This document shows positions 19,330 to 55,297 of a DNA stretch of 64,000 nt, piece by piece. Both the position numbers and the translations under genes were made by a program. This DNA comes from Chiloscyllium plagiosum (taxonomy: Eukaryota). The notes under the pieces are model-generated. The model saw nothing but the letters and a program-made list of their open reading frames with translations. It made no database searches and was not told where the DNA came from. Each line of letters begins with the position of its first letter. The first letter of the stretch is position 1. The stretch is from NCBI RefSeq assembly GCF_004010195.1, contig NC_057746.1, forward strand, positions 16,688,820 to 16,752,819, written 5' to 3'.

Positions 19330-19750
19330 AGAGCATGAAAACTTGTCGTACGAATAGGCATTTCAGCTCCTCGAGTCTGTTCTACCATTTGATACAATCA
19401 TAGATTATCTCATTTTGACCTCAACTCCACTTTCCTGCACGCTCTCCTTTACTTTTTAAACCATTACTAATTGAAATCTATCAGTTCCTTTAATCTACAG
19501 CGTCCCAGCAACCACGGCACTCTCAGGGTGTTGACGTCCAGAGATCCATGCTCCTTTGAGAAAAATAACTTCGGTTCATCTCTGTTTGAAATCTGCCACA
19601 CTCTATCTAATTCTACATTGCTCCACAAGGGCAATCATTCATCTAATTTGTCAATCTCATTTACCATCCAGTATACGTAAGTTAGATCACCGCTCATTTT
19701 TCTAAACTCCAGAGATATTTGGTCAAAACTGTTTAATATTTATTCAAAAG
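19330..19750 (-). mobile_element. Old CR1 LINE 3' end
   Basis: Decayed CR1 3'UTR and ORF2 C-terminal pattern on the minus strand. Confidence 0.6.
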
Positions 19751-20179
19751 ATAACGTTTGGCACTGAGATCCAATTGAAGCTATTGAGATTCCCAACACA
19801 GAGTCTGTAAGCAAAGAACAAAATGTGTACAATTTGGTGTCTTTATCCGTGTGGAATTTTGTTCAGCATCCTGAATCACGGATGGCCTCCCAGTTTATCA
19901 AGTGAGCACACACTGCCACTGAGCAAAACATTATTCGGCAGAGGAGTGACAAACTTCTTGGAGTGTGTACACACCTCACTGAGCCATGTTGTGACTTCAG
20001 CCAGAAGTGGTGAAAAGAGAAGGTTGGGAGTGTTAGAAATGATTTGTGCAGAAGGTGGAATTTCGCCGATTTGGAAGAAACTGTGTGACATATTTCCTGG
20101 AGGAAAATAGGTGGAGTTTGCTTGTGTATTTTTGCAATTGTTATGTTTTAATGCGAAAGGAGAAAATTGTTTTAGCTGA

Positions 20180-20299
20180 AGGCATTTCAGCTCCTCGAGT
20201 CTGTTCTACCATTTGTTACAATCATAGATTATCTCATTTTGACCTCAACTCCACTTTCCTGCACGCTCTCCTTTACTTTTTAAACCATTACTAATTGAA
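20180..20299 (+). repeat. 120-bp direct duplicate of 19356-19475
   Basis: 119/120 identical by direct comparison. Confidence 0.95.
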
Positions 20300-30066: not shown

Positions 30067-30566
30067 NNNNNNNNNNNNNNNNNNNNNNNNNNNNNNNNNN
30101 NNNNNNNNNNNNNNNNNNNNNNNNNNNNNNNNNNNNNNNNNNNNNNNNNNNNNNNNNNNNNNNNNNNNNNNNNNNNNNNNNNNNNNNNNNNNNNNNNNNN
30201 NNNNNNNNNNNNNNNNNNNNNNNNNNNNNNNNNNNNNNNNNNNNNNNNNNNNNNNNNNNNNNNNNNNNNNNNNNNNNNNNNNNNNNNNNNNNNNNNNNNN
30301 NNNNNNNNNNNNNNNNNNNNNNNNNNNNNNNNNNNNNNNNNNNNNNNNNNNNNNNNNNNNNNNNNNNNNNNNNNNNNNNNNNNNNNNNNNNNNNNNNNNN
30401 NNNNNNNNNNNNNNNNNNNNNNNNNNNNNNNNNNNNNNNNNNNNNNNNNNNNNNNNNNNNNNNNNNNNNNNNNNNNNNNNNNNNNNNNNNNNNNNNNNNN
30501 NNNNNNNNNNNNNNNNNNNNNNNNNNNNNNNNNNNNNNNNNNNNNNNNNNNNNNNNNNNNNNNNNN
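30067..30566. other. Assembly gap (exactly 500 N)
   Basis: Run of N. Confidence 1.
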
Positions 30567-32199: not shown

Positions 32200-32760
32200 A
32201 GATTCTGGTGACCAAGAGTTCACCAACCTCTCCAAACACTGTCAGCAGCAACAAGGTTCCATCATACAACACTTTGTTGATGGTGAACAGGCCTTGGGGA
32301 ACCAGGAGGTGAACTACTTACTGCAGAATCCCCACTCTCTCACCAACTGTTAAAACCACAGTGTTAATACTGCTGATCGCATTCAGGTTCTGGTCAGTGG
32401 AATACAACTTAATATTGATGGTGGGAGATTCAGTGATGGTAAAACCTTTGAACGTCAAAGTGGTGAGGTGAATGAAAGATGTTAAGATTCGGTCTTGTTG
32501 AAGATGGTCATTGCCTGGTACTTGTTTGGCATGAATGTGATTTCCCACTTGCTAGCCCAATTTTGTATCATGTGTCTTGCTATGTAAATACATGGACTGA
32601 TTCAGTGTCTGAGGTCTCACACTGAAAAATATCCAACCATCAGTGAACATCTTGACTTCTGACCTAAGGATGTAGTGAAGGTTATTGATGAAGGAGTTGA
32701 AAATCTTTGGACCTAACACCGTTTCGTGAGGAACACCTGCAGTGCTGTCCTGTGGCTGAG
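32200..32760 (-). mobile_element. Degenerate L2/CR1-group LINE RT fragment
   Basis: TAGVPHETVLGPKIFNSFINNL..IRSEV.MFTD = decayed [14 protein letters not shown] motifs. Confidence 0.7.
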
Positions 32761-32909
32761 ATTGCTGCACCTGAACAGTTTCACTGGGGGCACATAATGC
32801 CAAGGAATTTGTTAGGGCCCACAGTCTTTGCTATACCCCTAGGCTTTAACTGTACACCAGGTCTGGCAGGATTTGGAGGCAGTCTCAGGATGCCCATTTC
32901 CACACGGAA

Positions 32910-33250
32910 TACTTTATTCATCGAATGTGGACATCATTGACTCGGCAGCAATTTATTGTCCAGCCCCATTTCTCCAGAGGATAATTATTGTGGGTCTGAA
33001 GTCACTTTGTAGGCCCAGACCAAATAAAGACAGGATACTTCCTTGCACAAAAGGACATGAATGAACTCGATGGTTTTACAGCTATACTCATTGGGTACAT
33101 GTCCATCATGAGACTTGCTTTCAGTTCCAGGTTGTTTTTTATTTGAATTCAAACCTCACTGTCTGCCATGAGGGGATGTGAACCCATGTCCCCAGATCAT
33201 TAGCTGAGGGGATTCCCAGCCCAGTGACATCACCGCAATCACATCATCTT
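32910..33250 (-). mobile_element. Deu-domain (SacSINE-like) SINE, duplicated at ~34570-34895; related copies ~39790-40110(-) and ~51250-51500(+)
   Basis: tRNA-like head on the minus strand (GGGTTCACATCCC), GAATTCAAA, CCTTTTGTGCAAGGAAG and GGTCTGGGCCTACA core segments. Confidence 0.6.
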
Positions 33251-33489
33251 CCCACACACCAAGGATCCATTTAAACATATCTCCTCTAAAGGTCTGTGAA
33301 TGTTGGGATAATTCAAAAGGAGCTCCATATCAGAGATGATTGCATTTTTGGAGACTGAGGTTTGTCTGATATTTTGGTGATTGAAGGAGATGAAACTGAA
33401 GTTAAAAATCAGCAATGATCTCATTGGGTGGTGTAGCAGCATGAGGAGCTGAATGGTCTCTGTCCCAAAAATGAATTGCAGCTCAGCTC

Positions 33490-33660
33490 ATTCTCCCAGC
33501 AACTAGAGATGAAAGTGGAAGTGTTTAGGTAATTGGAAATTCCCAATCGTGGGCGGAGTTATGGAACCTGGTTGTTGTCTATTCTGCGGAGTCTGCTGAC
33601 TCACTGAGTCTTTTTATTGTGATTGTATCGATAATAGTTTGGGACCAATCAGTGTGAAGG
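33490..33660 (+). promoter_or_regulatory. MHC class I promoter, copy A
   Basis: GAAAGTGGAAGT IRF/ETS-like (33511-33522), GGAAATTCCC NF-kB (33535-33544), GC box (33551), S-box-like GGAACCT (33563-33569), X2/AP-1 TGACTCA (33597-33603), mutated Y box ATTGT (33622-33626), CCAAT (33645-33649). Confidence 0.75.
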
Positions 33661-33837
33661 TGTCTCGGTGAAGAGGAACGGTAACAAGAACTAAAACAAA
33701 GTGCTGAAAAATCTGTCGGGAGAGATATTGAAGATCCTTCTTCAGAACAGTTTAATATCACTCTCGATTACAGCTCACAGACTGAGACAGTCCGGTGGAA
33801 AATAATCTCTCCTCCCAGACTGTCGACTGAAGTCACG

Positions 33838-34306
33838 ATGATTGGACTGATAGTGCTGGGACTTCTGTGGGGAGAGCTCTCTGCAGGTGAGGAATGGGAG
33901 GTGAGAGAGAGGCAGAGCCAGGCTGGGAACTGGGGCTTTAACCTTTGATCATGTTACCATCAGAATGGTTTATGGGGTAATATTTATCTGTTTCTTGTTT
34001 AAACGTCAGTGAATCCACTGTTTTAAATGGATTAAGTTCGTACGAGACTTAACCATAAGGCTAGAACAAAAGATCTGTAATTGCGAAATTCAAAAGATGT
34101 ATTGAACTATACAGGGTGAAATGTAAAATTGGCAGACGTTTTTTTTAAGTAAAAGGAAAAGAGAAAAAAGTTAACAATATCACGTGATGAAGCTGAAGTG
34201 AATTGTGAAATTCTCTCCAGTGCTGGAGAAAAGGTGAACAAAATGATTCATGATTCAGGAATTCATGCTCAGATTTTTCTGTGTTTCAGAAACTCACTCT
34301 CTCTGA
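33838..34306 (+). pseudogene. Truncated MHC class I copy: leader exon 33838-33886 and alpha1 stub 34290-34306 (MIGLIVLGLLWGELSA-ETHSL*)
   Basis: Leader exon with GT donor at 33887; acceptor TGTGTTTCAG at 34289 matches the true alpha1 acceptor at 41728; stop created at the duplication junction. Confidence 0.85.
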
Positions 34307-36302
34307 CCTAAGGATGTAGTGAAGATTATTGACAAATGATTTGAAAATCTTTGGAGCAAACATTGTTTCGTGAGGAACTCCTGCAGTGCTGTCCTGTGTC
34401 TGAGATTGCTGTACCTGAACAGGTTCACTGAGGGCACATAACGCCAAGGGATTTGTTAGGGCCCACAGTCTTTGCTGTATACCCCTAAACTTTAACTGTA
34501 CACCAGGTCTGGCAGGATTTGGATGCAGTCTCAGGAAGCCCATTTCCACACGGAATACTTTAATTTAATCATCGAATGCAGACATCATTGACTAGGCAGC
34601 ATTTATTGTCCAGCCCTATTTGTCCTGAGGATAATTGCTGTGGGCCTGGAGTCACATGTAGGCCCAGACCAGATAAAGACAGGAGATTTCCTTGCACAAA
34701 AGGACATGAATGAACTCGATGGTTTTACAGCTATCACCGTTGGGTACATGTCCATCACAAGACTAGCTTTCAGTTCCAGATTGGTTTGTTTATTGACCTC
34801 ACTGTCTGCCATGAGGGGATGTGCACCCATGTCCCTAGATCATTAGCTGTGGGGATTCTCAGCCCAGTGACATGACCACTATCTCACCATCTTCCCTCAC
34901 ACGAAGGATCCATCTAAACATATCTCCTCTAAAGGTCTGTGAATGTTGGGATAATTGCAAAAACACCTCCATAATCAGGGATAATTACAGACTAAGGTTT
35001 GACTCATATTTTGGCGATTGAAGGAGATGAAACATAGAACAATACAGTGCAGAACAGGCCCTTCGGTCCTTGATGCTGAGCCGACCTGTGACCTATTCTC
35101 AGCTCGTCCCCCTACACTATCCCATCATCATCCATGTGCTTATCTAATGCTTATTTAAATCTCCCTCATGTGGCTGAGTTAACTATGTTGGCAGGTAGGG
35201 CATTCCACACCCTTACCACTCTCTGCGTAAAGAACCTGTCTCTGATATCTGTCTTAAATCTATCACCCCTCAATTTGTAGTTATACCCCCTCATACAAGC
35301 TGACATCATCATCCTAGGAAAAGGACTTTCACTGTCTACCTTATATAATCCTCTGATAATCTTGTATGTCTCAATCAAATCCCCTTTTAGCCTTCTTCTT
35401 TCCAATGAGAACAGACCCAAGTCTCTCAGCCTTTCCCCATAAGACCTTCCCTCCAGACCAGGCAACATCCTGGTAAATCTCCTCTGCACTTTTTCCAATG
35501 CTTCCAAATCCTTCCCAAAATATGGCAACCAGAACTGTACACAATATTCCAAGGTGTGACTGCACTAGTGTTTTGTATAGTTGCAGCATGATATTGCGGT
35601 TCTGGAACTCAATCCCTCTGCCAATGAAACCTAACACACCGTATGCCTTCTTAACAGCACTATCAACCTAGGTGGCAACTTTCAGGGATCTATGTACATG
35701 GACTCCAAGATCCCTAGGGCACATCCACACTACTGTGAGAAACGAAGCTCACTCACATCAATAATTTCAATCCGAGACAAAATCTGAAGCAGTAGTATCG
35801 TTTATTTTGCTCTTGCAAGAGGGATGTGGTGTCAACTATTTGTAAGATAGTCACACACACACCCAGTTTAATGGGTACACAACATTTTAAACAATCCCTT
35901 CTCAGTTTCCTCCTCCCCCACTCATCTCATTGGCGTGTCCATATGTCCAATCCGCATTCTTCTTTCTCCTTCTCCCATTGCTCCTCCCCTGTTTACATCT
36001 CCCACTACTCACACTCCTGGCACCCCTTACCCTTGTTTACTTCTTACCCTATTTGGTCTTAGGTGCAGGTATCTGCTTGGCTGTTTTTACCACATAACTT
36101 AACTGTCTTACCACAACCCTCTAGTTTATAGTTAGCGTATATCCTCTCCTATTGCTAGATGTGTATGTGTTTTGCTAAAGTGACACTCTTCCCCCTTTCT
36201 AACCCACATCGAGCCTTATGGCCCGATTGTGGTTTTTTCTGCAGATGCACAAAAAATACTGCTCATAGCTTGCTTGTGTAAACTTATCTCAATCTACATC
36301 CC

Positions 36303-36639
36303 GGATGAACTCGGATTTCACCAGTTTCCTCATTTCCCCTCCCCCCAGCCTGTCTCAGTCAAATCCATCAAATTCAGCACCGCCTTCCTAACCTGCAATC
36401 TTCTTCCCGACCTCTCCGCCCCCACCCCAGTCTGACCTATCACCCTCACCTTGACCTCTTTCCACCTATCACATTTCCGACACCCCTCCCCCAAGTCCCT
36501 CCTCCCTATCTTTTATCTTAGCCTGCTGGACCAACTTTCCTCATTCCTGAAGAAGGGCTAATGCCCGAAACGTCGATTCTCCTGTTCCCTAGATGCTGCC
36601 TGACCTGCTGCGCTTTTCCAGCAACACATTTCCATCCTT
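36303..36639 (+). mobile_element. Penelope-like element 3' terminal fragment nested in the LTR
   Basis: 12-bp TSD AATCTACATCCC (36291-36302, 36640-36651); C-rich tract; terminal repeat shared with the hairpin elements. Confidence 0.85.
36541..36580 (+). ncRNA. Candidate minimal type I hammerhead ribozyme
   Basis: CTGAAGA (36547-53), A, stem II GGGC-TAAT-GCCC, GAAA, palindromic ACGT mini stem III, GTC cleavage triplet (C36574). Confidence 0.65.
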
Positions 36640-36929
36640 AATCTACATCCCCCCTCCTATCCAGCCCTACAACCCTTGCAGACAACAACCTCCATAATCT
36701 TTTCCTTACACTACCAAGAATCTTTCCACTGACCCAATATTCTGCCTTCCTGTTATTCTTCCCAAAGTGCATCACCTCACATTTAGCTGCATTGAACTCC
36801 ATTTGCCATTTTTCAGCCCAACTCTGCAGTTTATCCAAGTCCCCCTGCAACCTGTAACATTCTTCCAAGCTGACCACTATTCCATCGACTTTAGTGTCAT
36901 CTGCAAATTTATTAATCCATCCACCTATA

Positions 36930-37402
36930 GAACATAGAACATAGAACAATACAGCACAGAACAGGCCCTTCGGCCCACGATGTTGTGCCGAACATTTGTC
37001 CTAGCTTAAGCACCCATCCATGTACCTATCCAATAGCCACTTAAAAGGGCACCAATGATTCTGACTCTGCCACTCCCACAGGCAGCGCATTCCATGCCCC
37101 CACCACTCTCGGGTAAAGAACCTACCCCTGACATCCCCCCTATACCTTCCACCCTTCACCTTAAATTTGTGTCCCCTTGTAACACTGTTGTACCCGGGGA
37201 AAAAGTCTCTGACTGTCTACTCTATTCCTCTGATCATCTTATAAACCTCTATCAAGTCACACCTCATCCTTCACCGTTCCAATGAGAAAAGGCCTAGCAC
37301 TCTCAACCTATCCTCGTACGACCTATTCTCCATTCCAGGCAACATCCTGGTAAATCTTCTCTGCACCCTCTCCAAAGCTTCCACATCTTTCCTAAAGTGA
37401 GG
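36930..37402 (-). mobile_element. Second CR1 3' end nested in the first
   Basis: (GAACATA)n tail; CTATA duplicated at 36925-36929 and 37403-37407. Confidence 0.85.
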
Positions 37403-37709
37403 CTATATCTGCATCTAAGTAATTTATAAAAATGACAAACAGTAGTGGTCCCAAAACAGATCCTTGTGGCACACCACTAGTAACCAGACTCCAGGCTGAA
37501 TATTTTCCATCAACCACTACCCGCTGCCTTCTTTCAGAGAGCCACTTTCAAATCCAAACTGTTAAATCACCCTCAATTCCATGCCTCTGCATTTTCTCCA
37601 ACAGCCTACCATGTTACCTACTGGAGTGAAGATCAGCAATCAACTCTTTGGGTGGTGTGGCAGCATCGAGGGGCTGAATGGTCTCTGTCCCGAGAATAAA
37701 TTGCAGCTC

Positions 37710-37875
37710 AGCTATTCTCGCAGCAACTGGAGATGAGAGTAGAAGTGTTTCCGTGATTGAGAAGTCCCAATCCTGGGCGGAGTTATGCAACCGGTTCTTC
37801 CGGAGCCTGATGACTCACTGACTCTTTTTATTGTGATTGGACCGGTGATATTTTGGGACCAATCAGCGTGAAGGT
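37710..37875 (+). promoter_or_regulatory. MHC class I promoter, copy B (proximal to the intact gene)
   Basis: GC box (37775), X1/X2-like CCGGAGCCTGATGACTCA (TGACTCA 37811-37817), Y box ATTGG 18 nt downstream (37836-37840), CCAATCAGCGT (37859); kB and IRF sites degenerate. Confidence 0.75.
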
Positions 37876-38060
37876 GTCTCGGTGAACAGGAACAGGAACT
37901 AAAACCGAAATTGCTAAAAATCTGTAAAGATATTGGAGTTAACGTTTTAGGTCCAGTGACCCTTCTTCAGAACAGTTTAATGCCACTTGGGTACAGCTCA
38001 CAGATTGAGACAGTCCGCTGGAAAGTAATCTTTCCTTCCAGACTGTCAACTGAAGTCACG

Positions 38061-38109
38061 ATGATTGGACTGATAGTGCTGGGACTTTTGTGGGGAAAGC
38101 TTTCTGCAG
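38061..38109 (+). CDS. MHC class I exon 1 (signal peptide MIGLIVLGLLWGKLSA)
   Basis: Hydrophobic leader, ACGATG start context, CAG|GTGAGG phase-1 donor. Confidence 0.88.
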
Positions 38110-41100: not shown

Positions 41101-42882
41101 TGTGACTATGGCCCTGATCACCTGGTCACGTGATGTGGGGCCCCTTAACTGATTGGATAATAGCTTTTGAAATGTATTAAATAACTATTTAATCTGTAAG
41201 ATTTCCTTTGTTCAGTGGACAAGTATCAGAACTGTCCCAGAGACTTGCTCCCTGCTGATGAAATAATAAACTCTGATAACTGAAGCAGACCTTGGGTATC
41301 ATGTGATCCTCATAGTCATTCTGTCCCTTCACTGCCATCTCCCAACTTGGAAAGAACTCTTCAAATCCGTGGCTCTAGCCCCTTGGTCGCTGACCTTCAG
41401 GTAACCTGAGGAGAGCACACACAAATGTTGGTGGAAAGGGTCAACAAGTGGCTGATGAGATTTAACGTGAACAATGCAGAGATATACATTTTGGAAGGAA
41501 AAACCTGGAAAGACAAAATAAAGAGTGAAGCTCTAAATCAGGAATAAGGGACAGAGAGTCCAGCAGTTATAAAAGTAAAAATCATAGAATGTGGATGGGC
41601 AGGTTCAGACGATGGGATCCTGGGCTTTATAAATACAGGTATAGTGTGTGAAGAGAGCTCTCTCTCAGCGTTCAGTTAGAGTGATGGGTGTTTAGGGATT
41701 CATGTACTGATTTCTTTTTGTGTTTCAGACACTCACTCTCTCCGGTATTTTGTCACTGGTATGACTCCGATTCCTGGTTTCCCAGAGTTTGTGATTGTTG
41801 GTTATGTGGATGGGGTCCAGTTTGTTATGTACAACAGCAATTGGAAGGGGTTGATTGCCCGGAAGCAGTGGATGGTGGATAGTGAAGGACCAAAGGCCTG
41901 GAACCGGAAACTATTGCTTGCTCAGGAGCAAGAAGACATTGTCAGACGCAATATTCCAAGATTTATGACACGGACCAACCAGACAGGAGGTGAGTGCTCA
42001 CCGTCCCACAGCATGACATCTTTCTGTGCGTTTGGGGAGTATGGGTGGGAATGGGAGAAATTAGGAGTGAATCTGAGTTCCAGAGACTGACTGGCTGTGG
42101 GAATGGTTGGAGGGGACACCAACTGTCTCTGTCTCTGATCAGCAACTTGTGTTTCTGATTGACAGGGATCCACATTTACCAGATGATGACTGGCTGTGAC
42201 CTGAGGGATAATGGGACTGTAAGTGGGTTCACTCTCAGAGGATGGGATGGACAAGATTTGATCAGCTTCGATAAGGATCACATGGTGTGGGTGACCCCAG
42301 TCCACTGGGCGGAAAGCATCAAAAACAGGAAGGACCAGGATGTGGTGTCTAACCATCTATGGAAGCATTTTCTGGAGGTGGAGTGCATTGAATGGCTGAG
42401 GAAATGCCTGGAGTACGGACAGAGGGAACTGAGAGTCGGTGAGGGAGTGAGAGTTGTTGTGGTGAATGATGTCTGGGCTTTTCTCTCTCTGCGTTCCTGA
42501 ACTGATTCTTCTTCCTCTTCCCCTCTCCCTCAGTTGCCCCGATCGTGTCCGTTACCCGTCTGGGTGATTTTAACTGGCTGGTCTGTCTTGTCACTGGGTT
42601 TTACCGACAAGCCATCGAGGTGACTCTATGGAGGGATGGAGTGTTGATCGATGAGCCCCTGTCCACCGGGATCTTGCCCAATCACGACAGGACCTATCAG
42701 ATCCGGAAATGGATAGAGTTTGATCCAGAGGACCAGGCCGAGTATTCCTGTCAGGTGGAGCACAGCGGATTGGAGGAGAAGCTGGTGGTGATTTATGGTA
42801 AGACTCATTCTCACTGTTAGAGAGGAACCAGGATCACAAGAGAGAGAGGACCAGCTGAGCTGCTTCAGCAGGACGCTCCAGG

Positions 42883-42918
<36 letters not shown>

Positions 42919-45900
42919 AAGTTGATACGAACTGTCAGTGTATCATAGTGCTCACATCAATTGTACAGGACAGTAATCAAGGCAGTGAATCAGGGAAACT
43001 ACAGTAGGGTGTCACCCAGTGTATCCTGGTGTGTAACACTACCCCAGCATCTTAATGTCCAGGAACATTCAGGATTAAAGAATACTACCAGCTCCTGCAA
43101 GTTCCCCTCCAAGCTACTCGCCATCCTGACTTGGAAAAACATTGTGGGGCCATCTACAGCACATGAGCTGTATTGGTTCAAGAAGGCAGCTCACCACCAC
43201 CTTCTGTAGAGCAACTACTAGGGAATGACTGTAAATACTGGCCCAACTAGTCACAACCATATCCCTATGATTAAAAATGAAAAACAGATCCAGAGTTATT
43301 TTGCTTTGAGACAGTTCAGTGAATTCAGGGATAGTAATGTCCGACAGTACCCATATATTCTGAGACTATTGCAGCAACCAGTGTATCCTCGAATTATAGC
43401 CCAGTGTATTTAACATTTGTTTCTCAATGATCTTTTTTATCTAACTCAATGTAACGATGAATAGTCAGCATGAATTTTGAGGGAGAATATTGTGTTTGAC
43501 CAACTCCATTGAATATTTTTGAAGAGACAGTATATTCCTGTTAGGCTGGTAGGTGTAGGGAATGCTGGATGACTGGAGAAATTGAGGTTTAGGTTAAGAA
43601 AAAGAAGGAAGCATATGTCCAGTATGAACAGGAGAGATCGTGTGAATCCTTACACGAGAGGCTGTAGGAGTCATCTGGATTAAAGTGGTGCTGGAAAAGC
43701 ACAGCAGGTCAGGCAGCATCTGAGGAGCAGGAAAATTGACATATTGGGCAAAAGCACTTCAGGGCTTTGCTTTTACCCGAAACGTTGATTTTCCTGCTCC
43801 TCAGATGCTTACTGACCTGCTGTGCTTTTCCAGCACCACTCTAATCTAGACTCTGATTTCCAGCATCCGCAGTCCTCACTTTTGCCTATAAAGGCTGTAG
43901 GAGTATACTTAAGAGGGAAATCAAGAGGGCAAAAAGAGGACATGAGATAGCTTTGGCAAATAGGGTTAAGGAGAATCCAAAGGGTTTTTATAAATACATT
44001 AAGCATAAAAGGGTAACTTGAGAGGGAATAGGGCTCCTCAAAGATCAGCAAGGGAGCCTTTGTGTGGAGCCGCAGGAGATGGGGGAGATATTAAATGCGT
44101 CAGTGTTTACTATGTGGAAGATATAGAATGTGGGGAAATAGATGGTGACATTTTGAAAAATGTCTATGTTACAGAGGAGGTGGTGCTGGATGTCTTGAAA
44201 TGAATAATAGGTGGATAAATTCCCAGGACCTGATCAGGTGTACCCTAGAACTCTGTGAGAAGTTAGGGAAGTGATCATTGGACCCCTTGCTGAGATATTT
44301 GTATCATCAATAGTCACGGGGAGGTGCTGGAAGACTGAAGGCTGGCTAACATGGTGCCACTATTTAAGAAATGTGGTAAGGAAATGCCAGGGAACTATAG
44401 ACCAGTTAATCTGACATTAGTGGTGGGTAAGTTGTTGGAGGGAATCCTGATGGACAGGACTTACTTGTATTTGGAAAGGCAAGGACCGATTAGGGATAGT
44501 CAGCATGGCTTTGTGTGTAGGAACACATATCTCACAAACTTGATAGTTTTTTTGAAGAAGTAACACAGAGGATTAGGGCTGTTATACATTTAATGGTAAG
44601 TCTCTGGGGAATGTTGCTGAACAAAGAGACCTTGGAAAGGAAGTTTATGACCTTGATAGGAGAGTCACAGGTAGATAGGATAGTGAAGAAGGCATTTGGT
44701 TTGCTTTCCTTTATTGGTCAGAGCATTGAGTACAGGAGTTGGGAGGTCATGTTGTGACCATACAGGACATTGGCTAGGCCACTTTTGGAATATTGTAGGC
44801 AATTCTGGTCTCCTCATATAGGAAGGATGTTGTTGCGAAACTTTGTAGGGTTCAGAAAAGATTAACAAGGACATTGCCATGGTTGAAGGATTTGAGCTGT
44901 AGGGAGAGGCTGAATAGGCTTGGGCTGTTTTCCCCAGAGCTTCAGAGGCGGAGGGGTGACCTTATAGAGGTTTATAAGATCATAAGTGGCATGGATAGGA
45001 TAAGTAGACAAGATTTGTACTTGGGTGTGGTTGAGTCCAGAAGTAGAGGGCATAGGTTTATGGTAATAGGGGAAAGATATAAAAAGGACCTAAAGGGCAA
45101 CTTTTTTTCACACAGGGTGGTGCATGTATGGAATGAGCTGCCAGAGGAAGTGATGAAGGCTGTTACAATTGCAGCATTTAAAAGGCATCTTGATGGATAT
45201 TTGAATCGGAAGGGTCTAGAGGGATATGGGCCAAGTGCTGGCAAATGAGGCTGGATTATGTTGCGATATCTGGTCAGCACGGACGAGTTGGACTGAAGGG
45301 TCTCTTTCCATGCTGTACATCTCTATGACTGTAGGTAACAGGGTTCACAGTGGTAATGTTGTAGATGTACTCTTGAAGGCTTTAAAAGGCCTTTGATCAG
45401 GTACCCCCATAATAAAAACATTTAGAGAATGTGGAGTCAGCTAAAATGGATTGTTAACTAGTTTGCAGACAGGAAAGAGATTGGGAATAAGGTTTATTTA
45501 GTCAGTGTCAGAATGATGGAAGTGATGTTCTGCAAGGAAACATTGCCATTCACAGTTTACAATATTGATTTGGACTTTGAAATTATGGAATCACATGGAA
45601 GTCTCTTTAGCCCATCATGCCCTGACTGTCTCTCTGAGCATTACCACTCAGTGCTATTCTCCTGCCTTCTCCCCATCACCCTGAATATGGTTTTATTTAA
45701 ATGGAATTTTAGAATTTAAATTATTATATACCCCGGCACCAAGCAGTCCAGAGAACAAGACAGGAATCCCAGGTAGTCCCAAGGGGGAGAGAGATATTTC
45801 GAGATATTCTAACAAAGAGCAGAGATGAGCTTTAGACAATCCTGTGTGATAGGAGGCAGGAGATCCAAAATCCCAACATGAGGAGCCTGATGCACGAGAC

Positions 45901-48900
45901 AGCCAGGTTGAGTCTACTACATCTCATCAGGCAGTGATTCTGGTGATCAAAAACAGTTATTTCCAAATTGGGGGTAGTCTGTATTCAGGAAGACAGCAGC
46001 AAGTTACAGAAAGGCATTAACAAACCTTCAAACTGAACAAATGATTGGTAAGTGAAGTAGAGGAACAAAACAATCTCAGAGAAAAAACACCCAATTACTG
46101 AATGTTGTGCACAGATTAGAGTCCTACAGCACGGACACAGGCCCTTTGGCTGAAACTGGTCCGTGCCAATCAAAATATTCATCACCACTACCCCCATTTC
46201 CCTTCACTTGACCCATATCCTTCTAAGTTGAAACTTTATTGCTGGAACAGCACAGCAGGTCAGGCAGCATCCAGGGAACAGGAGATTCGACGTTTCGGGC
46301 ACAGGCCCTTCTTCAGGAGGGCCTGTGCCCGAAACGTCGAATCTCCTGTACCCTGGATGCTGCCTAACCTGCTGTGCTGTTCCAGCAATAAAGTTTCAAC
46401 TTTGATCTCCAGCATCTGCAGACCTCACTTTCTCCCCATATCCTTCTAAACCTTTCCCTGTCCATGTATTTGTCCAAATGCCTTTTACACGGTGGTAATG
46501 TACCACCCTCTGCGAAAACATTGTCCCTCAGCTTCCCTTTTATTCTTTCCCCTGCAACCTTAAACTGATGCCCTGTAGCCTTTGATTCCCCAACCCTATT
46601 AAAGCGACTGAGTGCATTCACCTTATCCATGCCTCTAGTGATCTTATACGTTTCTGTAAGATCCTCCCCCACCTTCATTTCCTACACTCTAAAGAAAAAA
46701 GTCCTAGTTTGCCCAACTTCTCCTTCTAACTTAGTCCCTTGTGTCTTGGCAACTGCCTTGTAAATTTCTTCTGCACGCTTTCCAGTTTAATAACATCCTT
46801 CCTATTAGCAAAGTGACCAAAACCACAATACTGCAAGTGCAGCCTCACCAATGTTCTGTACCACTGCAATATAACTTCCCAACTTCTATACTCAATGCCC
46901 TGACTGATGAAGGCTGATGTGCCAAAAGCTGCCTTCAATGTCCTGTCTACTTGTGACTCTACTTTCAGAGAACCATGCAACTGAACTCCAAGGTCCCTCT
47001 GTTCCACTACATTCCTTAATGCACTACCATTCACCATGAAACTCGTGCTTTGATTTGAGTTTCCAAAATGAAGACCTCGCATGTATCTGCATTAAACTCC
47101 ATTTGCCATTTCTCTGCTCATTTCCCCAGCTGATCAAGGACCTGCTGCAATTTCTGATCACCTTCCTCGCTGTATTTGATACTGCCTATTTCAGTATCAT
47201 CTGCAAACTTACTAACCATGCCTTGTACATTCTCATCCAAATCGTTGATATAGATAACAAACAGCAATGGGCCCAGCACCAATCCACTGATTCTTGTGGC
47301 ACTCCAATGGTCACAGGCCTCCAGTCTGACAAGCATCCTTCCGTTATTACCTGCTACTTTCTAACAAATGTGTATTCAATTTGCCAGCTCCCCCTGGATT
47401 CCATTCAATCTAACCTTCAGAGCAGCCTACCATGAGGAATCTTAGCAAAGGCCTTACTGAAATCCATATACTGCCCTGCCCTCATCAACCTTCCCGGTCA
47501 CTTTATCAAAGAACTATAACAAATTTGTGAGGCATGATCTCCCATTCACACAGTCATGCTGAGTATTCCTAATCAAACTGTCTTTCCAAATGCATATAAT
47601 ATCTTATCTCAGAATCTTCTCAAGTAACTTACCTACCACAGATGTTCGGCTGACTGGTCTATCGTTCCCAGGATTTTCTTTGCAGCCCGCATAACCTTCA
47701 CTACTGTCCATAACTTCCATGACCTCACCCCGTGGATAACAATTAGAAAGGGCATTTTTTTATGAACAACCTGAGGATAGGCTTTAATTTTTAGAGGAGA
47801 TTTAGCATATGCCACCTCACCTTCAATTCTACCTTGAAGTTTGGTTAGACCACATATTGAGAACTGCAGACAGTTCCGGTCACCATGTGATATAAAGGAT
47901 ATTGAGGCACTGGAGAGAGTGCTGAGAAGATTTACAATGTCAATATCAGAAACGTGTGAGTGTATGTATCAGGAAAGGATTGAGAGGCTTGATGTCTTCT
48001 CTCTTGAATGATGGAGCCTGAATAGAGATCTTTAAAATGATGAATCATTTTGAAAGAGTGGGTGCAGAGAGAATGTTTGTGGAAGGGCACAACTAGGGAC
48101 TATCAACACAAGGCAGTCACCAAATATTCCGCATGGGATTGCAGAGAAGCTTTGACAGTCGGACCATGAGGAGAATGTGAATCTTGCTGCTGAAGGGAGT
48201 GAGATTGTCAAGATATATTTAGAGGGAAATTAGAAAGGAATCAGGAGTGATGGTGATAGATATAAATGAGAAAGGAATGTGGAGCTTCAAGAGACTAAAT
48301 ACAGGTGTATGTTGATTGGACCAAATGGGTTCAGTGTGTGCCTTTTATTTTCTTCTTTCTCTCTCTTCATGCCTCACTCGGCTCTCTGTCTCTCTGTGAC
48401 AGACCCAAAGTCTCATGCCCAGGTTCCTGTTCCTATTGGGATTGTATTCGGAGTCCTCTGGATCATCTCTCTCTCTGTTGTGGCTGTCACCATTTACAAG
48501 AAGAAAGGTTGGAGGTTTTGAGAAAATGGCAGCTCCTCACGGTTGGGGGTTTCAGGGAATTGGAAATGATCCCAGCGATGAAGAGCTTGTTATATGATGA
48601 GCTGTTGAGGACTCTGCGTGCGTACTGGATGGAGTTGAAAATGTTGAGAGCAAATCTCATGAAAAGTATACATTACTGAGAGGAGTGGATGTGGAGAAGA
48701 TGTAGGAGACACGAGGACCCAAGGGAACAGCCTCCGTGTGACGGGATGACCTTTTAGAACTGAGGAGGAATTTCCTCAGTGGTGACTCTGTGGAACCCAT
48801 TGCTGCAGAAGGTTGTGGAGGCCAAGACATTGAGTGTCTTTAAGACAGAGATAGGTTCTTGATTGGTAAACGGCTCAAGGTTACAGTGAGAAGGCAGGAG

Positions 48901-50019
48901 AATGAGGTTGAGAAATATATCAACCACAGTGGGCTGAATGGCCTAATTCTGCTCTATATCTTATAGTCTCCAGTTGATAGTTTTGGTTCAGAGGTGGGCA
49001 AGGAACGTCTGTGTTTGGGTGTCAGTCTCAGGGTTAGTGATAGCTCAGGCAGTGGGGAGAGGGCATTAGTTTGTGAAGGAGGGTCTAAGCGTCCCTTCGT
49101 ATGGAGATTGTTCCCTTGGATCCTACTCTAACTTGTTCCTCAGGTTAGGCTGGAGTGTCTCAGGGGTTGGAGTCTCACGTTGTGAGTGTGAGGTCAGACA
49201 GTTCAGATTGGGGCTGGGTCTCAGTTCACTGTTGGGCATAAACAGCTCAGGGCAATGTGGGTAGGAGAGGCTGAGTCTGGATGGGAGTGAGGGTCTTCAG
49301 CATTTCCTCTGACGTTCTGACACTGACTGAACATTCCTTGTTTTACAGGGGGAATGAAAAATGACTACAATCCAACAAACAGTAAGCTGATAATTCAGAC
49401 ATCTCAGCGTCTGTGTTAGTGTATGACAAGCTGTTCTTTCTGTTTCACACAAAGAACCACAAACGCAGAGATCTGAAACAGAAAAAAGCAGAAATTGCTG
49501 GAGAAACTCAGTAGGTTTGGCAGCAGCTGTGGAGAGAAAAACACAGTTAACATTGAGTCCAGTGACTTTTTGTTCTGGGAGTTCTGTTGTGTGAGTGTGT
49601 GGCAGTGGAGTGGGTGGGGGTCGGGGTCACTGGATCTAAAGCATTACTTCTGCTTCCTCTCTCTCCACAGATGCAGGCAGACATGCTGAGATTCTCCAGC
49701 AATTTTTTTGTTCTGTCTGGTCTAGACTGGTCTATCTGTCTTTCGTTCTCCTGTTGGTCTCATGTGCTCTCTCTCTCTCTCATACACTCTTTCTTTCTTT
49801 TACATCTGTGGGTCATTTTTGCTCTCACTCCTGTTCCGCTCTCTCTCATTTCTTTTGCTTACGCTTCCTCTCTTGCATTTTTCTCTATAACGCCCTTTCT
49901 CTCACACTCATGTTTCTCACTCTCTCTTTCGCTCTGATAATGAGCAGTTTCTAATGCCTCTCTTTCCGTTAACAGCTTCTGATAAAAGGACATCCTCAGA
50001 CAGTTCTGTCATTTCCTGA
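38061..50019 (+). CDS. Non-classical MHC class I heavy chain, join(38061-38109,41729-41989,42166-42438,42534-42797,48403-48507,49349-49381,49976-50019), 342 aa
   Basis: All six introns GT-AG and phase 1; spliced length 1029 nt, open to TGA at 50017-50019; leader, alpha1, alpha2, alpha3, TM and two cytoplasmic exons. Tentatively resembles the elasmobranch UBA lineage from memory (MTPIPG, GWDG, WVTPV), not verified. Confidence 0.93.
38740..39270 (+). mobile_element. Penelope-like 3' fragment in MHC intron 1
   Basis: LEEEHHIFCLGTLEPHGINVDF GIY-YIG C-terminus, C-rich tract, decayed CTGATGAAG...AAAC motif. Confidence 0.8.
40960..41331 (+). mobile_element. Possible solo LTR in MHC intron 1
   Basis: Ordered CTGATTGG, TATTTAA, AATAAA and a CA end, but no clear TSD. 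Confidence 0.35.
41729..41989 (+). CDS. MHC class I exon 2 (alpha1)
   Basis: DTHSLRYF..PEFVIVGYVDG..W..EGP..W..NQT glycosylation site; TTTCAG acceptor, G|GTGAGT donor. Confidence 0.96.
42166..42438 (+). CDS. MHC class I exon 3 (alpha2)
   Basis: GIHIYQMMTGC..WDGQD..W..ECIEWL, C101/C164 pair; GACAG acceptor, G|GTGAGG donor. Confidence 0.96.
42534..42797 (+). CDS. MHC class I exon 4 (alpha3, Ig C1 domain)
   Basis: LVCLVTGFY..W.RDG..LPNHD.TYQ..YSCQVEHSGL; CCTCAG acceptor, G|GTAAGA donor. Confidence 0.96.
42885..42914 (+). repeat. (AG)n microsatellite
   Basis: About 15 uninterrupted AG units. Confidence 0.95.
43530..45335 (+). mobile_element. CR1 LINE, internally deleted, in MHC intron 4
   Basis: VPLFKK..PGNYRPVNLT..SQHGF, RRRGDLIEVYKI, RVVHVWNELP, CTATGACT tail. 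Confidence 0.9.
43672..43891 (+). mobile_element. Penelope-derived hairpin mini-element
   Basis: Inverted arms plus constant tail; 13-bp TSD AGGCTGTAGGAGT (43659-43671, 43892-43904). Confidence 0.85.
46115..47690 (-). mobile_element. CR1 LINE RT/3' part in MHC intron 4
   Basis: [37 protein letters not shown]. Confidence 0.9.
46227..46434 (+). mobile_element. Penelope-derived hairpin mini-element
   Basis: Near-perfect ~175-nt palindrome (46226-46401) plus tail; 15-bp TSD CCCATATCCTTCTAA (46212-46226, 46435-46449); intact hammerhead core on the minus strand (46316 to 46289). Confidence 0.9.
48403..48507 (+). CDS. MHC class I exon 5 (connecting peptide and transmembrane)
   Basis: DPKSHAQVPVPIGIVFGVLWIISLSVVAVTIYKKK; long pyrimidine tract and GACAG acceptor; phase 1/1. 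Confidence 0.9.
48560..48970 (+). mobile_element. Old CR1 3' end in MHC intron 5 (similar relics at ~47800-48340 and ~50560-51040)
   Basis: Decayed ORF2 C-terminus and GGGCTGAATGGCCTAATTCTGCTC 3'UTR. Confidence 0.7.
49349..49381 (+). CDS. MHC class I exon 6 (cytoplasmic, GGMKNDYNPTN)
   Basis: 33-nt phase 1/1 exon, TTACAG acceptor, A|GTAAGC donor, conserved class I cytoplasmic Tyr. Confidence 0.85.
49976..50019 (+). CDS. MHC class I exon 7 (cytoplasmic, TSDKRTSSDSSVIS*)
   Basis: AACAG acceptor; SD..SDSS like the class I SDxS motif; TGA followed after 1 nt by a G|GTATGA donor, so a further 3'UTR exon is likely. Confidence 0.82.
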
Positions 50020-52014
50020 GGTATGAGTATTGTTGGTCAATGTTGTGAGAAGATCATTCTAATTGGGATACAGAAAAACCTCGATTATGTGAATGACATG
50101 GGCGGGGAGTATGTAGTTTGGATAACTGATTGTTTTTGATCATATCAGTTATCCGAACAAAGCAAGCATTGACAGGACTTAGATCTTATTCAAATAATCT
50201 GAAATTCAGATAATTGATGTTTGAATAACCGAGGGTAATCTGTATTGGGGCTGGTTTTCACTGTACGATCTGCAGGGTGGACTCTGAGCTCAGTTCTCTC
50301 TACTTGTGTGATCACTAAAGACCAGCTCATGCAGTTTCACACTGAGCTTTCAGACTGTCCTTCTGTAGATGGCTGTCCTTATACTGTTCTCAGCCTCAAG
50401 ATATTGTCAACAGGAGGGATTTGGGCTACAGAAACATCTGGAAACTTTTCATCCTGGATGGGGCTCCTGTCTCACTTAGTTTGTTTCTGGAGTTGAGCTC
50501 TGCGCTCCCGGGATTCTGAATTACTGAAATGTGGCCAGTGGGGTCTAGATCTGATGGAGACCTCCGAACAGGTCAGGAGACCAAACCGTGAGGAGATTTG
50601 TGATCCTGGAGGGAGTGCAGTATAGATGGGCCAGAATGAAATGTGGACTTCGAGGTTTAAATTACACAGACATTAAACAAACAAACTAGGGTCGTGTTTC
50701 AGGAAATGAAGGTTAAGGGCTGATTTTAATGGAGGTTTTCAATGTATTTAGTGAAGTGGATATGGTAGATAGAGGAGAACTGTTCTGACTGGCTGGGGTG
50801 TCAGTATAGTTCGAGTCAGACCTATTGAGAGTGAAACTAGGTAACACTTCCACAATAACTCACCCTTTCTCAAAAGGCAATTGATGCAAAATGAACTTGA
50901 GTGAATTTAAAATCTAGAAAACTCAGAATTAAGAGACAAATGGAAGCTACATAAATGGATTGAGGCAACACACCAGCAAAGATCTGATTGAATGGTGGAA
51001 CGGCATTGAGGGGTTAAATGGCCTCCTCATCTTCCTATGTCCCTGTGGGTTTTGCTGGTCTTTAGGGAGTGGGTCTGAGGGGTTTTACTGATGTTTGGGC
51101 AATGGGGCTTTTGTGTTTCACTGCTGGTCTTTATGGGAGATGCTACAGGGTCTGCTGGGTTTTCTGTGCTCTGTAACAGAGTTTTTTTTCTCTTCCCCAG
51201 GGGCCTCTGATGTCCTTGCTGGAAACCAGGTTTCCATTGCTGCGATTGACCTTCTAATTTCTTCCACCTGAATTTCAGAAGCAATTTGAATTGCCGATCC
51301 GGAATAGTGAAGAGCCAGCCTAATGGTGACCATGTAACCATTACGGTTTGTTGTTAAAAGTCATCTGGTGCACTAATGTCCTTCCACGATAGAAATCCTG
51401 ACCTGGTCTGGTCTACATGGCATGACAGAGCTAGTTAACGCTTAACTGCCCTCTGGACAGCAAATGCTGGCATTGCCGGTGATGGCCACATCTCAGGAAA
51501 CAGCTTTTAATGTGGACAGTGTGATTATGTTTCCTGAGCAGAAACTTCATCTCCACAGGACAGCACTCAGTTTTCATGCCCCATGCACTATACCTCAGTC
51601 AATTCAGCACATACACATGATCTTCTTCAGCCATTCGTCAGTGGGATTATCCCAGACCTCAGTTTGAATTTTCCTGCATCTTAAATACTGAGTGAAGCCT
51701 TTTCTACAAACTTGTTACACAGCAATATCTCTGGAGCCTGATGGAAGTCAACATTACATTACGATGGTACATACTGTCTCATGGCAATAGATGTCATGAC
51801 TCCACCTCCTGCCCAGAGCATGCTGCACCCTCACACTTTCTGACTTGAACTGTTTCCATGTTCCCACTCCTATCAATTTATACCCTTCCTCGTGCAAATT
51901 CTCAATAGAGCTGCGTACTCATGGTCTGCATTCCAGCCTCCTGTCTTGGGATCAAGGCTGCACTATTTCCTGTCCCACTCTCTCCAACTCGGATTGTGCT
52001 GAGGTGTTTATTGA

Positions 52015-53237: not shown

Positions 53238-53737
53238 NNNNNNNNNNNNNNNNNNNNNNNNNNNNNNNNNNNNNNNNNNNNNNNNNNNNNNNNNNNNNNN
53301 NNNNNNNNNNNNNNNNNNNNNNNNNNNNNNNNNNNNNNNNNNNNNNNNNNNNNNNNNNNNNNNNNNNNNNNNNNNNNNNNNNNNNNNNNNNNNNNNNNNN
53401 NNNNNNNNNNNNNNNNNNNNNNNNNNNNNNNNNNNNNNNNNNNNNNNNNNNNNNNNNNNNNNNNNNNNNNNNNNNNNNNNNNNNNNNNNNNNNNNNNNNN
53501 NNNNNNNNNNNNNNNNNNNNNNNNNNNNNNNNNNNNNNNNNNNNNNNNNNNNNNNNNNNNNNNNNNNNNNNNNNNNNNNNNNNNNNNNNNNNNNNNNNNN
53601 NNNNNNNNNNNNNNNNNNNNNNNNNNNNNNNNNNNNNNNNNNNNNNNNNNNNNNNNNNNNNNNNNNNNNNNNNNNNNNNNNNNNNNNNNNNNNNNNNNNN
53701 NNNNNNNNNNNNNNNNNNNNNNNNNNNNNNNNNNNNN
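53238..53737. other. Assembly gap (exactly 500 N)
   Basis: Run of N. Confidence 1.
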
Positions 53738-54509: not shown

Positions 54510-55297
54510 GTTAAAAATCACACAACACCATATTATAGTCCAACAGGTTTATTTGGAAGTACTAGCTTTCACTACGCAGCTTTTTCGTCAGATGGCTGGT
54601 AGGGCAGGGTTACAAGACATAGAATTTATAGTTGCAAATGTGTGGCTGGAAAAGCACAGCAGGTCAGGCAGCATCCAAGGAACAGGAGAATCGACGTTTC
54701 GGGCATGAGTCCTTCTTCAGGAATCTTCATTGATTCCTGAAGAAGGGTTCATGCACGAAACGTCGATTCTCCTGTTCCTTGGATGCTGCCTGACCTGCTG
54801 TGCTTTTCCAGCAATACATTTTCAGCTCTGATCTCCAGCATCTGCAGTCCTCACTTTGTCCTCATAGAATTTATAGTGTAAGGCCATAGCATCATATACC
54901 TGATATGATATATTGAACAATTTGCTGTTAAATCTTTCATCTTTTAGGATGGGTTGCAAGTTTCAATTCATTAATACACAAATCCCAGAACTTCTTACAA
55001 CTCACATTCCATAGATAACTTAAGATTTTGTAAAGAGAGGTGACATTTCAGTTCAGACAATGCACTAAAGGCGTGAGGTTAGAATCTGTCTGTATTCCAA
55101 TCTTGAGTCAGACAGGTTCTATTTCCAAAGTAGGTATTCAGAAAATATCACATGGATTGACTACCTGCATTGACTGACTGCATATTAAGTGTTTTTTAAC
55201 AAAATAAAATACATCTGCAAATAGAATTCTGCAAATGAAAATTCACCCCATAGACTTTCATGTGTGTGTGTGTGTGTGCACGTCAGGGAGAAAGAGA

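Follow-up and report, generated by a model that had tools for sequence, protein, structure and literature searches.

Copy A, in the 64,000-nucleotide stretch of Chiloscyllium plagiosum DNA analysed here (the window), comprises a promoter, a leader exon, a 403-nt intron and 14 nt of exon 2 that end at a junction. It sits 4.2 kb 5' of an intact nonclassical MHC class I gene (gene B). How did such a fragment arise, and does its promoter serve gene B? We put at roughly 65% the probability that copy A is a stump, left when a later deletion, probably polymorphic, took away the rest of a formerly complete tandem paralog.

Anatomy of copy A and gene B

The anatomy, as observed directly, is as follows.

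32658..33396, forward strand: far 5' flank of copy A (U1), 87% like 34302-35033 (blastn), with 9.3% substitutions
33511..33520, forward strand: GAAAGTGGAA of copy A, which we take to be an IRF/ETS-like site, one letter off the published ISRE consensus
33535..33544, forward strand: GGAAATTCCC, kB-type site of copy A, the sole exact copy within the window
33550..33649, forward strand: copy A block with GC box, S-like box (33563-33569), X1-like region, X2 (TGACTCA, 33597-33603), altered Y (ATTGT, 33622-33626) and CCAAT (33645-33649)
33838..33886, forward strand: copy A leader exon, frame open, GT donor intact, present in RefSeq isoform X3
33887..34289, forward strand: copy A intron 1, 403 nt, pyrimidine tract and AG intact
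34290..34303, forward strand: copy A exon 2 stub, reading E-T-H-S-L with the leader; a stop follows immediately past the junction
34302..35033, forward strand: far 5' flank of gene B (U1'), homologous to 32658-33396
35031..37620, no strand: 2.6-kb block of high-copy repeat fragments, presumably LINE/SINE-like, in the flank of gene B and not in that of copy A; contig depth very high
37735..37863, forward strand: copy B promoter with altered IRF (GAGAGTAGAA, 37735-37744) and kB (GAGAAGTCCC, 37759-37768) positions, GC box, S-like box (37787-37793), an S-X2 gap 10 nt shorter, X2 (TGACTCA, 37811-37817), Y (ATTGG, 37836-37840) and CCAAT (37859-37863)
38061..38109, forward strand: gene B leader exon
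41729..42797, forward strand: gene B exons 2-4 (alpha1 41729-41989, alpha2 42166-42438, alpha3 42534-42797), frames open
48403..51268, forward strand: gene B transmembrane, cytoplasmic and last exons, inner boundaries approximate

Gene B is an MHC class I heavy-chain gene in which the leader, alpha1, alpha2, alpha3, transmembrane and cytoplasmic exons all have open frames (E=2e-84 against 6LUP_A). Classical MHC-Ia molecules are marked by eight conserved peptide-anchor residues, whose set and numbering we assume here; in the 6LUP alignment gene B keeps two of the eight (Y7 and R84) and has A at 59, I at 143, R at 146, K at 147, F at 159 and C at 171. Gene B is thus a nonclassical class I gene. 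The nearest matches outside the hemiscylliids include nurse shark O19479 (68% in alpha1), presumably a UBA sequence; a literature search for O19479 returned no paper naming the accession. Several paralogs of the gene B family occur per species, on one chromosome-size contig, and the UBA label is tied to none of these sequences. The available parts of two papers on the shark UBA family (PMC10751288, PMC12562908) describe multicopy, UAA-like, clustered class Ib genes, as here, and contain neither promoter data nor C. plagiosum coordinates. The UBA cluster is flanked by c4 and rxrb in the available text of PMC10751288, the supplement of which has no C. plagiosum rows.

Origin of copy A

The stub begins with an E codon, as does the complete upstream gene of C. 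punctatum (the first half of the fused model P0025) and as do 5/5 H. ocellatum models of this group among those listed; gene B begins with D. The second half of P0025 is the gene B ortholog and its 5' region is B-type (92% over 75 translated codons versus 56% for A), so the A/B split predates that between C. plagiosum and C. punctatum. Because P0025 is an automatic fused gene model, the adjacency of the two genes in C. punctatum is deduced from the model and not from DNA. In the tree, gene B sits on a long stem (0.14, support 100/100) within a 98/95 clade that holds the E-type genes.

Reads and contigs were compared for four of the 24 runs listed. A distinct exon 2, recognized by five letters at 41761-41777, occurs at a depth of 2.7 in DNA run X1, at a depth of 41.8 in run X14 (guessed to be RNA) and in 1/3 raw RNA reads of X21; it matches the C. 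punctatum upstream gene at 19/20 residues. No protein with this A-type exon 2 was found among the C. plagiosum protein models. The complete A-type gene before the B ortholog in C. punctatum and the A-type exon 2 in these runs indicate that the two promoters likely diverged at the head of two complete genes. A contig of run X1 (depth 9.5) stops exactly at 34303, as would be expected where the sequence forks into truncated and intact forms. None of the contigs listed spans the junction or runs from the A intron into an intact exon 2, in a listing that covers 24 of 5943 loose ends; the fork is read from this one contig end and from the depths. In contigs of organism B, the A promoter bins have depths of 47-68 and the B exon-1/intron bins 2.6-12.8.

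The history that we propose, whose timing, polarity and polymorphism we infer, would begin with a whole-gene tandem duplication before the C. plagiosum/C. punctatum split. Two complete genes would then have diverged by ∼ 12%, in a manner resembling the enhancer A and ISRE differences among HLA class I loci. B would probably be the derived copy: its kB and IRF sites are altered, its S-X gap is shorter and it has lost three further peptide anchors. At the promoter this polarity is indirect, since the rows listed (40 of 725 letter differences, 12 of 43 indels) include no outgroup letters for the kB, IRF, Y or indel positions. A deletion from codon 6 of A exon 2 into the far upstream flank of B would have followed, leaving the A promoter in place. 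The ATTGT of copy A could postdate this truncation. A partial tandem duplication would yield the same layout within the window.

Transcripts from the copy A promoter

RefSeq isoform X3 (XP_043533917.1, P0019), as annotated, joins the A leader to exon 2 of gene B. On the deletion haplotype, a transcript from the A promoter might splice to the stub and meet an immediate stop, or it might skip the stub (which has no good donor within 600 nt) and reach B exon 2, in which case the mature B protein would be unchanged.

It is quite possible, with the odds somewhat against it, that RNA from the stump is spliced into the stub and broken down, isoform X3 being an annotation artefact of reads from intact A placed on an assembly that has no A exon 2. 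The stub acceptor is intact and just 403 nt away, with a stop after the junction, and in X14 the intact A-type exon 2 is deeper than that of B (41.8 versus 23.5) and is placed on B exon 2 at 88% likeness. However, the proteins encoded by the two exon-2 types show only 72% likeness, a level at which annotation pipelines would often turn a match down, and exon definition would be expected to favour skipping of a stub that has no donor.

More doubtful is promoter capture, in which A would provide gene B, on the deletion haplotype, with a second start that is functional and cytokine-inducible. This would render a weakly inducible nonclassical gene inducible and is compatible with the origin of the stump by deletion. 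Besides isoform X3, it is favoured by an A donor that scores the same as the B donor (8/9), by the distance of the nearest 7/9 donors past the stub, which would make exons of 645 or 905 nt, and by RNA coverage of the A-type 5' UTR and exon 1: an X14 contig covers 33629-33867 at a depth of 17, and X21 RNA covers 33594-33887 on a single strand at a depth of 1.04, with 0 in the two adjoining bins. Yet the same RNA samples contain intact A-type exon 2, so that these reads may stem from intact alleles. The joint of exon 1A to exon 2 is absent among the 15 of 1260 joints listed, in which repeats dominate, and the 7.8 kb to be crossed contains five AATAAA/ATTAAA hexamers as well as B's own promoter. 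The proposal of the preliminary description that the truncated copy may act as a promoter for the intact gene has some support from the annotated isoform and is unconfirmed in reads; a reading of A as a mere enhancer fragment we reject, since A retains an open leader exon and its donor.

The full scenario, which we consider unlikely, would be a segregating deletion that removes one MHC-Ib gene and leaves an NF-kB/IRF promoter and leader to splice 7.8 kb onto a specialised, anchor-poor neighbour that would have lost such sites from its own promoter. Should the joining of the A leader to B exon 2 hold on deletion haplotypes, promoter capture would have created an expression polymorphism. Animals with the deletion would give up one class Ib molecule and in return express another in a cytokine-inducible manner, so that MHC regulation itself would be polymorphic, in the most ancient lineage with an MHC. 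CYP11B1/CYP11B2 and Hb Lepore are deletion hybrids between tandem paralogs, in-frame fusions made by unequal crossover, and as proposed for A and B they set the promoter of one paralog before the coding exons of the other. The shark case differs in that the junction is of the non-homologous type, gene B has not lost its own promoter and any hybrid transcript would have to be spliced across 7.8 kb. A literature search turned up no class I precedent for a leader exon stranded in this way, only unrelated papers. Ordinary birth-and-death turnover in a class Ib cluster, together with locus-specific promoter divergence as in HLA and salmon, is the most likely description of the locus.

Promoter motifs and the test of complementary decay

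All motifs named in the preliminary description are found where it placed them; as kB, IRF, X2, Y and CCAAT sites they are predictions from the letters. The GC box (33550/37774), X2 and the CCAAT box (33645/37859) are unchanged in both copies, and a second CCAAT beside the kB position is common to both (33543/37767). The X2-Y and Y-CCAAT gaps are 18 nt in each copy. The pattern X2-18-ATTG-19-CCAATCAG occurs twice versus 0/100 shuffles, a figure to be read with the pattern's derivation from these two non-independent copies. A scan of metagenomes for the 20-nt promoter motif gave five loci, none of which matches the window outside the motif, and we take these as chance. With respect to the SXY module, copy B has X2 and, 18 nt on, ATTGG; copy A has ATTGT at equal spacing, so the X2-Y pair is complete in B only. 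With respect to enhancer A and the ISRE, copy A has one kB match (the window holds six kB-consensus sites) and an IRF site one letter off the consensus, and copy B matches neither. S and X2, where S is our own assignment and presumed for both copies, are 27 nt apart in copy A versus 17 nt in copy B. The ISRE consensus is given as GAAA-N1-2-GAAA in the available text of PMC6797598, and S-box spacing is critical in mouse (PMC4374748).

The preliminary description went on to propose regulatory subfunctionalisation by complementary decay, a model in which partial duplication was followed by complementary losses so that B needs both copies. We consider this very improbable. The pattern is present as described and isoform X3 ties A to B, but there is neither an excess nor a deficit of changes in the motifs. 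By direct count, A and B differ in 7/53 motif columns (13.2%), or in 7/38 (18.4%) if only the five motifs first named are taken, compared with 14/103 non-motif promoter columns (13.6%; Fisher p=1.0 and p=0.59, respectively); the background is 52/426 in the near flanks and 67/721 in the far flank. Motif substitutions thus match flanking divergence, the first of the outcomes that the preliminary description had named as counting against it, and the concentration of changes at regulatory sites that duplication-degeneration-complementation (DDC) predicts is not seen (7/53 versus 14/103, p=1.0). Neutral simulations give a complementary pattern of some kind in 65-73% of cases. The exact one, in which a copy with altered kB and IRF faces a copy with altered Y, comes up in 2-3%, which lends the model some support, although this pattern was chosen post hoc. 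The complementarity of the motif changes is not beyond chance. The losses are also lopsided, with three altered features in B versus one base in A, which retains two CCAAT sites. Moreover, copy A seems once to have headed a complete gene of its own, and the C. punctatum B ortholog appears to follow a complete gene rather than a stump. DDC needs both copies to be fixed, and the intact A-type exon 2 in X1, X14 and X21 suggests that the stump is not. Nor is the description of the shorter spacer as one helical turn upheld: the helical periodicity that has been published concerns the X-Y spacing, and an altered W(S)-X distance lowers reporter expression (PMC4381081), so we also reject the idea that one turn keeps S-X function.

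Least probable of all is that the junction is an assembly error and A is complete in every animal: the locus does lie on a 22.7-kb contig between two 500-N gaps, intact A-type exon 2 is present in other runs and none of the contigs listed bridges the junction, but the ∼ 2 nt of microhomology at ∼ 34303/34304 is too little for the usual mis-join, and the X1 depth of 2.7 for intact exon 2 against 9.5 for the contig ending at the junction would accommodate a truncated branch as well.

The promoter of copy A would differ from that of its neighbour in the way known for other class I paralogs. In the available text of PMC3987962, HLA class I promoters (HLA-G, HLA-E), like the shark pair, share enhancer A/ISRE and SXY and differ at single sites, and the nonclassical loci have the most divergent kB and ISRE. 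HLA-G has no working X2 and Y (PMC3987962, same text), whereas shark B, known from its sequence, retains both and differs at kB, IRF and S spacing. Salmon L-lineage class Ib paralogs differ in ISRE content and interferon response, a likeness to the shark copies at the level of sequence; these genes have no SXY module in the available text (PMC6797598), whereas X2 and CCAAT are retained in each of the shark copies, with a constant distance between them. No description of the shark kB/IRF/X2/Y/CCAAT layout with fixed spacing was found among the papers listed in searches of open-licence literature, and a shark class Ib promoter of this kind is of some value in itself. Copies A and B also form a natural reporter pair with which to examine the use of these sites by NF-kB, IRF and NLRC5 of sharks. 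The shark IRF-like site lies upstream of the kB site, opposite to the mammalian order of kB and ISRE.

Structure of copy A and the class I locus

Upstream of the intact class I gene (gene B) lies a second promoter region, copy A, which breaks off shortly after the start of exon 2. We interpret copy A as the stump of a deleted paralog and the promoter differences as ordinary divergence between paralogs (probability roughly 0.65).

32658-34303, copy A, whole: far flank, promoter, leader exon, intron and 14 nt of exon 2
33838-33886, copy A leader exon: 49 nt, donor intact
copy A intron 1: 403 nt, acceptor intact
34302-35033, gene B upstream region, homolog of the copy A far flank: 87% alike
35031-37620, repeat block in the gene B flank: 2.6 kb

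The exon-2 stub is joined to the gene B upstream region with ∼ 2 nt of microhomology at the junction. A distance of 4223 nt separates the copy A ATG from that of gene B, and intron 1 of gene B measures 3619 nt. The 22.7-kb contig carrying the locus is flanked by two 500-N gaps (30067-30566, 53238-53737); tblastn found no further class I exons in the window.

Rearranged tandem paralogs with swapped promoters are known in other systems. Locus-specific kB and ISRE differences are established among HLA class I paralogs and salmon L genes, according to PMC3987962 and PMC6797598 respectively. The literature searched contained no description of shark class I promoter elements, and the accessible portions of PMC6523485 and PMC1351924 contain nothing on shark promoters; earlier shark class I papers outside that literature may cover these genes or stumps.

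Reads and transcripts of copy A

The read comparison covered four of the 24 listed runs. In X1 (DNA) a contig spans 33300-33855 with four differences (depth 9.55), therefore promoter A is present in another animal. A second X1 contig (depth 9.52) terminates exactly at 34303. An alternative exon 2 with five different letters at 41761-41777 has depth 2.7 in X1 and 41.8 in X14 (guessed to be RNA), where the gene B exon-2 contig has 23.5, and occurs in one of three raw RNA reads of X21; if all five letters are assigned to a single contig, 19 of 20 residues agree with the C. punctatum upstream gene. The simplest reading, from one contig end and the depths, is that truncated and intact alleles diverge from a fork at the junction; no piece among the contigs listed bridges the junction. 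Contig depth for organism B of the read comparison is 67.7 and 46.5 in the promoter A bins versus 12.8 and 2.56 in the gene B exon-1 and intron bins, which suggests that the A-type is the commoner one. At 33633 the window reads A, a private variant or reference error; copy B and all X1, X14 and X18 contigs covering the position have G.

The preliminary description suggested that promoter A might serve gene B. Such a capture is possible but unlikely in our view. The cluster contains seven isoform sequences from C. plagiosum, and one of them, RefSeq isoform X3 (P0019, XP_043533917.1), joins the copy A leader to gene B exon 2. Skipping of the stub is plausible, because the copy A donor equals that of gene B in quality and the nearest 7/9 donor to the stub is at least 645 nt away. 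However, splicing to the stub, whose acceptor is intact, would meet a stop at once, five polyadenylation hexamers lie within the 7842 nt that a splice to gene B would have to span, and the joint is absent from the 15 listed of 1260 joints. RNA does cover the copy A 5' UTR and leader, as an X14 contig (33629-33867, depth 17) and in X21 at depth 1.04 (one strand, few reads; both adjoining bins 0, gene B exon-1 bin 0.27). Since the same samples contain intact A-type exon 2, however, both the leader reads and isoform X3 may derive from intact alleles.

Promoter motifs and their divergence

The promoter layout is real: the sequences at the kB, IRF, S, X2 and Y positions and the spacings earlier given for each copy are all present, and that observation is confirmed. 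Both promoters share a GC box, X2, a CCAAT box and a second CCAAT adjoining the kB position, with X2-Y and Y-CCAAT gaps of 18 nt. Between the copies, the promoter shows 13.6% substitutions, the sequence immediately 5' of it 12.0%, the 5' UTR region 11.8%, intron 1 12.6-15.6% and the far flank 9.3%. Motif columns do not differ significantly more often than other promoter columns (7/53 versus 14/103, P = 1.0; 7/38 for the five originally named motifs, P = 0.59), and the smallest P against any flank is 0.085. In 65-73% of neutral simulations (200,000 per rate) each copy loses a motif retained in the other; the exact observed pattern, picked post hoc, arises in 2-3%. Complementary motif loss is thus not shown to exceed drift, and the proposed complementary subfunctionalisation of the two promoters is unsupported and very improbable.

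The S-X2 gap, 10 nt shorter in gene B, had been read as one helical turn. PMC4381081, however, ties helical periodicity to X-Y spacing and reports lower expression when the W(S)-X distance is altered; PMC4374748 describes the S box and spacing as critical for NLRC5. If anything, the shortening would be a third change against gene B rather than a neutral turn.

The window contains six kB-consensus sites. One, at 33208-33217, lies 630 nt 5' of the copy A ATG and is probably repeat-derived; its gene B flank counterpart (34851-34860), beyond the repeat block, differs by one base. The N-terminal extension (residues 1-17) of the low-quality whale shark model P0008 resembles gene B translated through its X2 and CCAAT-box frames, over 3 and 6 residues (frames compared, 33645-33662 and 37810-37818). 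Its X2-to-CCAAT gap is shorter, leaving no space for a Y box at 18 nt, a weak hint that these promoters vary at Y.

Identity and history of gene B

Exon 2 (41731-41988) is 100% identical to P0002, a RefSeq class I protein of C. plagiosum, and the exons further downstream agree with that gene as well. Among solved structures the best relative is 6LUP_A (E = 2e-84). Gene B is nonclassical, since on the 6LUP alignment it retains two of the eight classical peptide anchors. Anchors 147, 159 and 171 are gone, whereas the upstream C. punctatum gene retains all three; their loss (42166-42438) is common to gene B and its C. punctatum ortholog, and sister paralogs keep them. In a tree of 21 alpha1-alpha3 rows from 37 stored proteins, gene B and its orthologs sit on a 0.14 stem (100/100) inside a 98/95 clade with E-type genes. 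The common losses and the long stem with short tips suggest a specialised, conserved class Ib molecule. Relatives are multicopy in Hemiscyllium, Stegostoma, Rhincodon, Mustelus and nurse shark, which is consistent with the shark UBA family as described in PMC10751288 and PMC12562908.

The first codon of the copy A stub is E, as in the complete gene that makes up the first half of the fused C. punctatum model P0025 and in all five H. ocellatum models of the group among those listed; gene B and its ortholog start with D. The second half of P0025 is the gene B ortholog, and the linker matches the translated 5' region of gene B at 92% over 75 codons versus 56% for copy A. Because this ortholog carries a gene B-type 5' region, the A/B split is placed by these models before that of C. 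plagiosum and C. punctatum. Judging from the automatic fused model rather than DNA, the ortholog in C. punctatum appears to be preceded by a complete E-type gene.

RefSeq isoforms X1, X2 and X4-X6 carry a 27-residue extension from an in-frame upstream ATG at 37980, which the C. punctatum model shares and copy A lacks. The transmembrane exon is spliced out, within the interval 42797-49381, in isoforms X4, X5 and X6, which are therefore predicted to be soluble forms of gene B. Isoform X7 (three accessions) begins at an internal Met, hinting at more first exons.

Two further kinds of repeat occur in the window; the inverted pairs have arms of 83-96 nt, 88-96% complementary and 2-11 nt apart.

46222-46405, 54630-54827 and 43674-43850, near-perfect inverted pairs of one short dispersed repeat family
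19339-19475 and 20163-20299, direct repeat of 137 nt, 93% alike, 824 nt apart
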